The position numbers and the translations under genes are program-made. The notes under the pieces were generated by a model, which saw only the letters and a program-made list of their open reading frames with translations, was not told where the DNA came from and ran no database searches. From assembly GCF_030013595.1 (NCBI RefSeq), contig NZ_CP122768.1: 64,000 nucleotides of DNA; one strand, 5' to 3'. Positions 19,971-20,830 of this stretch are shown here, in pieces. This stretch comes from Escherichia coli. GTDB taxonomy: Bacteria; Pseudomonadota; Gammaproteobacteria; Enterobacterales; Enterobacteriaceae. Each line of letters begins with the position of its first letter. The first letter of the stretch is position 1.

Positions 19971-20830
19971 TTATGCTGCTAATAATCTATCCAGTGACTG
20001 CTGAGCAATAACCAAATGCTGACCGCCAAATAACCTTGCACGATTTAACAGCGTGTAGAGTTGGTAAACCGGTTGACGTTCAAGGAAATCGGCAGGTAGC
20101 GGGGATACTGACTGATAGCCGTCATAGATTTGTGGCGGCTGTTCAGTATGCAGCGGTAACATCGCCAGGTCGCACTCTCGGTCACCCCAGTAGCAGGCCG
20201 GGTCGAAAATGTACGGGCCATCCGGACCCAGCGCACAGTTGCCGGACCATAAATCGCCGTGCAACAGAGAAGGCTGCGGTTGATGCGAGGCCAGACGCTG
20301 CTGAATATGCTCGACGATGGCATCGATATTGCCGAAAGCGATCCCTTTTTCTGCCGCCAGTTCCAGCTGCCAGCCAATCCGTTGTTCAGCAAAAAAGTTG
20401 ACCAGCGACGTTGCCAGGTGTTGGGCTGGGGAGTTGTGGAGAGCGCGTTATCGAAATCGAGGCCAAATTGCGGTTGGTCGCTCCATTGATGTAAACGCGC
20501 AATTTGCTGACCAAGAATAAATGCGCTATGCGCATCCAGCGGGCGAGGTGGGAGATAGTCCATCACCAGAAAACTGTAGTCACGGTCAGCGCCAACTGCC
20601 CAAACCTTAGGCACGGTGACGGTTTTACTACGCGACAGTAACTCCAGTTGGTCGGCTTCGGCGGTAAAACCGGGAAGCAGTTCCCTTTCATCACATTTGA
20701 CGAAAAAGTCACGTCCTGCATAGCGCAAATGCCATGCGGCATGGACTTCTCCGCCAGGCAGTTCATTACGCAGTTCGATTTCGCCTTCACCTAACTGCTC
20801 GCTCAAAAGACGACTGATTGCCTGCCACAT
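19971..20830 (-). pseudogene. yniA: fructosamine/ketosamine kinase family protein YniA, disrupted by a -1 frameshift (or homopolymer sequencing error)
   Basis: N-terminal part lies in ORF 20045..20830, whose tail is nonsense; the conserved C-terminus (HGDLWSGN…) lies in another frame, ORF 19971..20264; frames switch at the A6 run at 20391..20396. Confidence 0.7.

Follow-up and report, generated by a model that had tools for sequence, protein, structure and literature searches.

A one-base contraction in an A run splits yniA in an Escherichia coli genome record: consensus error or recent pseudogene

Is the frameshift that splits yniA in this Escherichia coli sequence a property of the organism or of the assembly? 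Read at face value, the window (the whole stretch of 64,000 nucleotides that was analysed) describes a strain that has lost YniA. The comparative evidence suggests instead that the gene is probably intact and that the record carries a homopolymer error, and we put the probability at about 0.7 that the split gene is a residual undercall in a long-read-based assembly and not a property of the organism.

The split gene and its repaired product

The features of the locus are as follows.

19971..20830, minus strand: yniA (fructosamine/ketosamine-3-kinase family), 860 nt against the expected 861, 99.9% identical with one gap to the annotated yniA of NZ_CM149870.1
20391..20396, no strand: A6 run, site of the 1-nt contraction, A7 in relatives
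20045..20830, minus strand: 261-aa ORF, YniA residues 1-146 followed by 115 out-of-frame residues, without the catalytic loop (from the ORF listing)
19971..20390, minus strand: C-terminal coding part of yniA, residues 147-286 and the stop codon, in the other frame (from the ORF listing, the repaired translation and the alignment to PDB 3JR1)
19971..20264, minus strand: 97-aa ORF corresponding to YniA residues 190-286 (from the ORF listing)

The initial annotation had placed a frameshift at this A6 run, and direct reading of the run together with the A7 of relatives confirmed that the feature is in the sequence as described. On the plus strand, positions 20391..20396 read AAAAAA with C on one side and G on the other, and the coding strand accordingly has T6, within the codons for Thr144-Phe145-Phe146. 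The annotation had also assigned the N-terminal part of YniA to the 261-aa ORF, which holds for residues 1-146, but the nonsense tail that it had estimated at about 100 residues is 115 residues long (147-261). It was right that the C-terminus with LHGDLWSGN lies in a different frame, the TTG "start" of the 97-aa ORF being actually Leu190 of YniA. Since the ORF finder requires a start codon, 19971..20264 is all that the ORF listing shows of the C-terminal part.

As the same annotation had predicted, adding one A to the run gives a continuous protein of 286 aa, and its identity to the YniA encoded by HCP5S3_I2, the closest complete genome, is 100% (WP_000267670.1). Over the 1,001-bp locus the only difference between the window and HCP5S3_I2 is the one base in the A run, and the orthologues that we inspected were all in frame. 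The repaired (orthologous) protein matches Pfam PF03881, the family for which a search had been advised, over residues 1-285 (model of 288 positions, E = 1.5e-117), and it also matches the APH family PF01636; for the 261-aa product a precomputed PF03881 match is on record. The repaired YniA is a putative ketosamine 3-kinase of the fructosamine kinase family. Bacterial members of the FN3K family prefer ribulosamine and erythrulosamine as substrates. In the literature library searched, yniA and fructosamine are mentioned jointly in one paper, and there in passing only.

The frame is lost past residue 146, before the catalytic loop is reached, and both HGDLWSGN (residues 191-198) and FDPA (residues 209-212) lie downstream of the break, in the other frame as the gene is written. 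The catalytic loop (HGDLWxxN) and the DPA segment are joined to the N-terminal nucleotide-binding lobe only once the A has been added. Since both motifs would be missing from it, the product as written would be predicted to be inactive.

Lineage of the window and its private changes

Of 5,426 complete E. coli genomes, 5,423 have the yniA locus. The closest of the complete genomes is that of the pig isolate HCP5S3_I2 (NZ_CM149870.1), with 99.94% identity over the approximately 56 kb aligned. HCP5S3_I2 has an IS200 copy, a P2-like prophage and an IS5 without counterpart in the window, and it lacks an IS10-like element that the window carries. Its prophage, of about 37 kb, is located between ihfA and btuC (L004 36177 to L008 ~23700; comparison records are given by such handles where they have to be told apart) and carries an ISVsa5 insertion as well as parM/TA cargo genes; at the corresponding junction of the window (~33400) there is no prophage and the empty site is intact. 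HCP5S3_I2 also has a 1-bp deletion of its own that frameshifts chbR (GGCAAAAA>GGAAAAA; L004 12152..12993, window ~8110), a gene that is intact in the window and in the other genomes.

The window's own lineage was traced via its katE G581C allele, for which a public collection has 128 blocks. Most of the SNPs between the window and HCP5S3_I2 are common to this lineage (L014, L016 and L019), four of them being synonymous and two nonsynonymous. Since these alleles are lineage-shared and mostly synonymous they represent real lineage variation, and random substitution noise, which the transversion-rich differences from HCP5S3_I2 had led us to suspect, was rejected. Within the lineage, the IS10-like element marks a sublineage:

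14038..15366, plus strand: IS10-like insertion (ISVsa5 family, 402-aa transposase) with a 9-bp target duplication GGTTAAGTT

This insertion sits between cedA and ydjO and is absent from most lineage members as well as from HCP5S3_I2. The left junction of the window's element is precisely where the record L016 (GCA_025624855.1) stops, and its right junction is precisely where L019 (GCA_017842835.1) begins, which means that both belong to the same IS-marked sublineage as the window.

Against L019, all 6,928 aligned bases match save for the A7 of the run, and the yniA of L019 is intact and encodes 286 aa. The lineage mates L014, L017 and L018 carry A7, as does HCP5S3_I2; A7 was found in L001/L004, L006, L007, L014, L017, L018, L019, L027 and L032. 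A lineage-fixed pseudogene would show the same lesion in the closest relatives, and they do not have it. Inheritance of the A6 within the clade was therefore rejected for the window's lineage; the A6 is private to the window record.

Relative to the lineage mates and HCP5S3_I2 (~58 kb), the window has only two private 1-bp indels, both of them 7-to-6 contractions of A/T runs, at 1710 and 20391. The first of these is:

1710..1715, no strand: T6 run in the astE-spy intergenic region, second private 7-to-6 contraction, T7 in L014, L016 and HCP5S3_I2

An exact 81-bp match with T6 at this site occurs in 97 complete E. coli genomes of other lineages, so that the astE-spy T run is both error-prone and variable in length by nature. 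At position 1546 the window has a private C>G (C in all other genomes examined), which disrupts a pair in a perfect inverted repeat, ACCCGCAGAA-ATCA-TTCTGCGGGT, that lies directly downstream of astE and is terminator-like. Import of the changes at 1546 and 1710 by recombination from a lineage with natural T6 was rejected, since the G at 1546 is found in the window alone, the T6 lineages having C there. A private C>T at 38267 results in SelO A298V, a protein variant of which the collection searched has no record, and a G>A at 35276 is possibly private as well. The tally is thus two homopolymer indels against about two to three SNPs. In addition, a 57-bp deletion private to the window (~53098..53106), in the ydiF-aroD intergenic region, lies between 9-bp direct repeats CGAAATATT and takes out GGCGGGGGAGGATATTCCCGCC, a GC-rich hairpin and apparently the terminator of ydiF.

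Within the 64-kb window yniA is the only frameshifted gene. Furthermore, 26 of the 28 comparable runs of at least 7 nt are unchanged, all the 8-mers among them, which means that the assembly is not grossly compressed, and systematic homopolymer compression across the window was rejected on this ground.

The same run in other assemblies

The contracted run recurs in a more basal member of the window's lineage, L015 (GCA_030347985.1), which lacks both the 17274T allele and the IS element and has the A6 in yniA together with the T6 at 1710. L015 shows four further 1-nt homopolymer contractions (window positions 2437, 2460, 5632 and 23440) and a 1-nt insertion; in L029, which belongs to the same contig, there is one more contraction, at 36606, and both have substitutions in GACG[TC]C contexts. 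A6 accompanied by other contractions was seen in several Logan contigs too. Since the lineage members between L015 and the window (L014, L016 and L019) keep the 7-mers, both contractions of the window are homoplasic, as technology-specific errors would be.

Amongst the complete E. coli genomes with the locus, the exact 81-bp A6 allele occurs in 5 of 5,423. All five are porcine ETEC in which yniA is annotated as "frameshifted", and their strain names, host and region suggest that they come from a study in which 94 isolates were sequenced with ONT R9.4.1 only and polished with medaka (PMC10151945). ETEC6333, with A6, and ETEC6334, with A7, are identical over 34.6 kb save for this run. Several ETEC strains of the same lineage and naming scheme have one extra base in a 4.6-kb region, and in ETEC6334 the extra base was confirmed to be the A7; across this lineage the distribution of A6 does not track the SNP relationships. 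In the porcine ETEC lineage a further gene, next to yniB, is annotated as frameshifted:

L031 19530..20199 and L032/L033 15831..16500: hxpB of the porcine ETEC lineage, annotated as "frameshifted"

The +1 insertion in hxpB is annotated in five of the five ETEC assemblies examined, including ETEC6334 with its intact yniA, and it may reflect a systematic error or else a pseudogene that the lineage really has.

The exact 261-aa product was found on 317 contigs, look-ups of it giving other lineages only, and its 90% cluster comprises 51 sequence variants, so that the same -1 change recurs on many backgrounds. When contigs with this product were aligned to an ST69 complete genome, most showed other homopolymer contractions, and in one of them a C4>C3 contraction splits the essential thrS. 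There are, however, ST69-background contigs that have A6 and no other indel in 12-21 kb, namely L024 (plus six similar places) and L026, and these clean contigs, which noisy reads would hardly explain, suggest real slippage at the run. Clean A6 contigs are those of SRR6072698 and ERR15941358. Two DDBJ records of E. coli (BDY95146.1 and BDZ03712.1) have the exact 97-aa C-terminal ORF as a hypothetical protein tagged MUTS15_38030; such a locus tag may point to mutS-related strains, where real slippage at the run would be expected.

The explanations weighed

The initial annotation had named a slippage pseudogene and a homopolymer basecalling error as the two possibilities. Both remain as the sole serious candidates, and the comparative evidence leans towards the error. 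On this explanation, the 7-nt A/T homopolymer would have been undercalled by one base in a long-read consensus, and the true gene would be an ordinary, intact one encoding the 286-aa YniA, a protein of the fructosamine/ketosamine-3-kinase family. We prefer it because A7 is found in the nearest relatives, because the window has a second private 7-to-6 contraction and because the site flips between clonemates that appear to be nanopore-only. It is a matter of direct observation that the base is missing, that the gene is intact in the closest relatives and that the run differs between two clonemate assemblies; the nanopore-only origin of the clonemate ETEC assemblies, the use of long reads for the window and a consensus error behind its A6 are inferences. 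The change is of the kind expected of such an error, consisting of one base in a homopolymer of at least 6 nt with intact homologues in near-identical genomes, and the same site is miscalled in what are apparently independent long-read-only assemblies (ETEC6333/ETEC6334, if they are correctly linked to the ONT study). Since the window crosses a multicopy 1.3-kb IS10 at which L016 and L019 break, it is likely that long reads were used. Systematic errors in uncorrected nanopore sequence are chiefly homopolymer indels that frameshift genes (PMC8011154). Counting against an error are the otherwise clean assembly, the clean A6 contigs L024 and L026, and the private changes of genuine look (the 57-bp deletion and SelO A298V), by which the isolate has to some degree really diverged from its nearest sequenced relatives.

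The alternative, which we regard as possible yet clearly the less probable of the two, is a genuine and very recent slippage pseudogene, in which one A:T pair was lost from A7 after the split from the sequenced sublineage mates, truncating YniA past residue 146 and removing the catalytic half of the kinase. The lesion is, after all, present in the sequence as given, yniA is dispensable, and the gene that follows, yniB, is convergent, so no polar effect would arise. Indel rates climb exponentially with the length of a homopolymer run (PMC8510543), and this run-length dependence favours slippage, as do the direct-repeat deletion and the SelO substitution, which are private changes of a genuine type in the same isolate. 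The long runs kept in the assembly point the same way, as does the presence of the allele in otherwise clean contigs on another background (L024 and L026). The 51 variants of the 261-aa product, on hundreds of contigs, indicate that the run can mutate recurrently.

Against slippage stands the absence of the allele in the nearest relatives, despite the otherwise complete match over 6,928 aligned bases to one of them. The second private contraction also argues against it, particularly since both contractions coincide with those of the noisy L015. A real A6 also looks rare in high-quality genomes, given that a single nanopore-only study appears to be the source of all five complete genomes with the exact allele. 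Furthermore, in the coding sequence of E. coli lacking mismatch repair there are roughly 7 substitutions for each small indel (6.02 against 0.85 per CDS; PMC8510543), and neither normal mutation nor mutation without mismatch repair would give an indel/SNP ratio as high as that of the window. A real lesion would be an ordinary, isolate-private loss of a dispensable gene.

We consider it quite improbable that the T7 run of yniA is a genuine recurrent hot spot of slippage, with separate origins of loss-of-function A6 alleles in many lineages of E. coli, those of this isolate and of the clean ST69-background contigs among them. Were this the case, a kinase of protein deglycation would be inactivated repeatedly, or its inactivation tolerated, and there might be leaky -1 decoding on U UUU UUG.

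Least credible of all is a functional two-frame arrangement, in which a phase-variable switch, -1 ribosomal frameshifting on U UUU UUG or transcriptional slippage would yield full-length YniA. The identical -1 change is found on many allelic backgrounds, and the mutant mRNA contains the U-rich heptamer U UUU UUG, at which a -1 shift is predicted from the sequence to restore the frame; but sequencing noise explains much of the recurrence, and in L005 the run is interrupted by a synonymous ACT>ACG, a change not expected under selection for a slippery tract. A tract of 7 nt is, moreover, short for a contingency locus. Neither the two-frame arrangement nor a hypervariable tract is conserved in orthologues: the exact 81-bp A6 allele is absent from 5,418 of the 5,423 complete genomes, and yniA was in frame in every genome inspected individually, which excludes the ancestral two-frame arrangement that the initial annotation had considered.

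Whether error or pseudogene, the outcome is an ordinary one. For annotation, a homopolymer error has a practical consequence, since long-read-only E. coli assemblies seem to go wrong repeatedly at the yniA context GCAAAAAAAGT, and a frameshift in the gene there should not be taken as biology without accurate reads.

Comparison with known systems

Once the window's gene gains one A, it encodes the same 286 aa as the E. coli YniA WP_000267670.1 (fructosamine kinase family protein), and its context, pfkB-ghoS(ydiZ)-yniA / yniB-hxpB, is that of E. coli YniA; as written it differs from the E. coli gene in its length (860 nt against 861) and in a frame that is broken past residue 146. Residues 1-267 of the repaired YniA align with the FN3K-family structure PDB 3JR1, a putative fructosamine-3-kinase (E = 4e-71), and the alignment takes in the HG(D/N)LW loop and the (D/N)PACYWGDRE segment. 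Other solved structures of the family are 6OID (a plant protein-ribulosamine 3-kinase), 3F7W and 9CX8 (human FN3K); the likeness to the solved structures, 3JR1 included, is one of sequence homology only.

Frameshifts by slippage at mononucleotide runs are known from mutation accumulation in E. coli, where a -1 change at an A:T run, as found here, is the classic product; in those spectra substitutions exceed such indels several-fold, even where mismatch repair is lacking (PMC8510543), an excess that the window's private changes do not show. The residual homopolymer indels of nanopore-only assemblies, the problem that Homopolish addresses (PMC8011154), resemble the window in the loss of a single base from a 7-nt A/T run with intact relatives. 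The window differs from them in its low indel load, with two in ~58 kb and 26 of 28 long runs intact.
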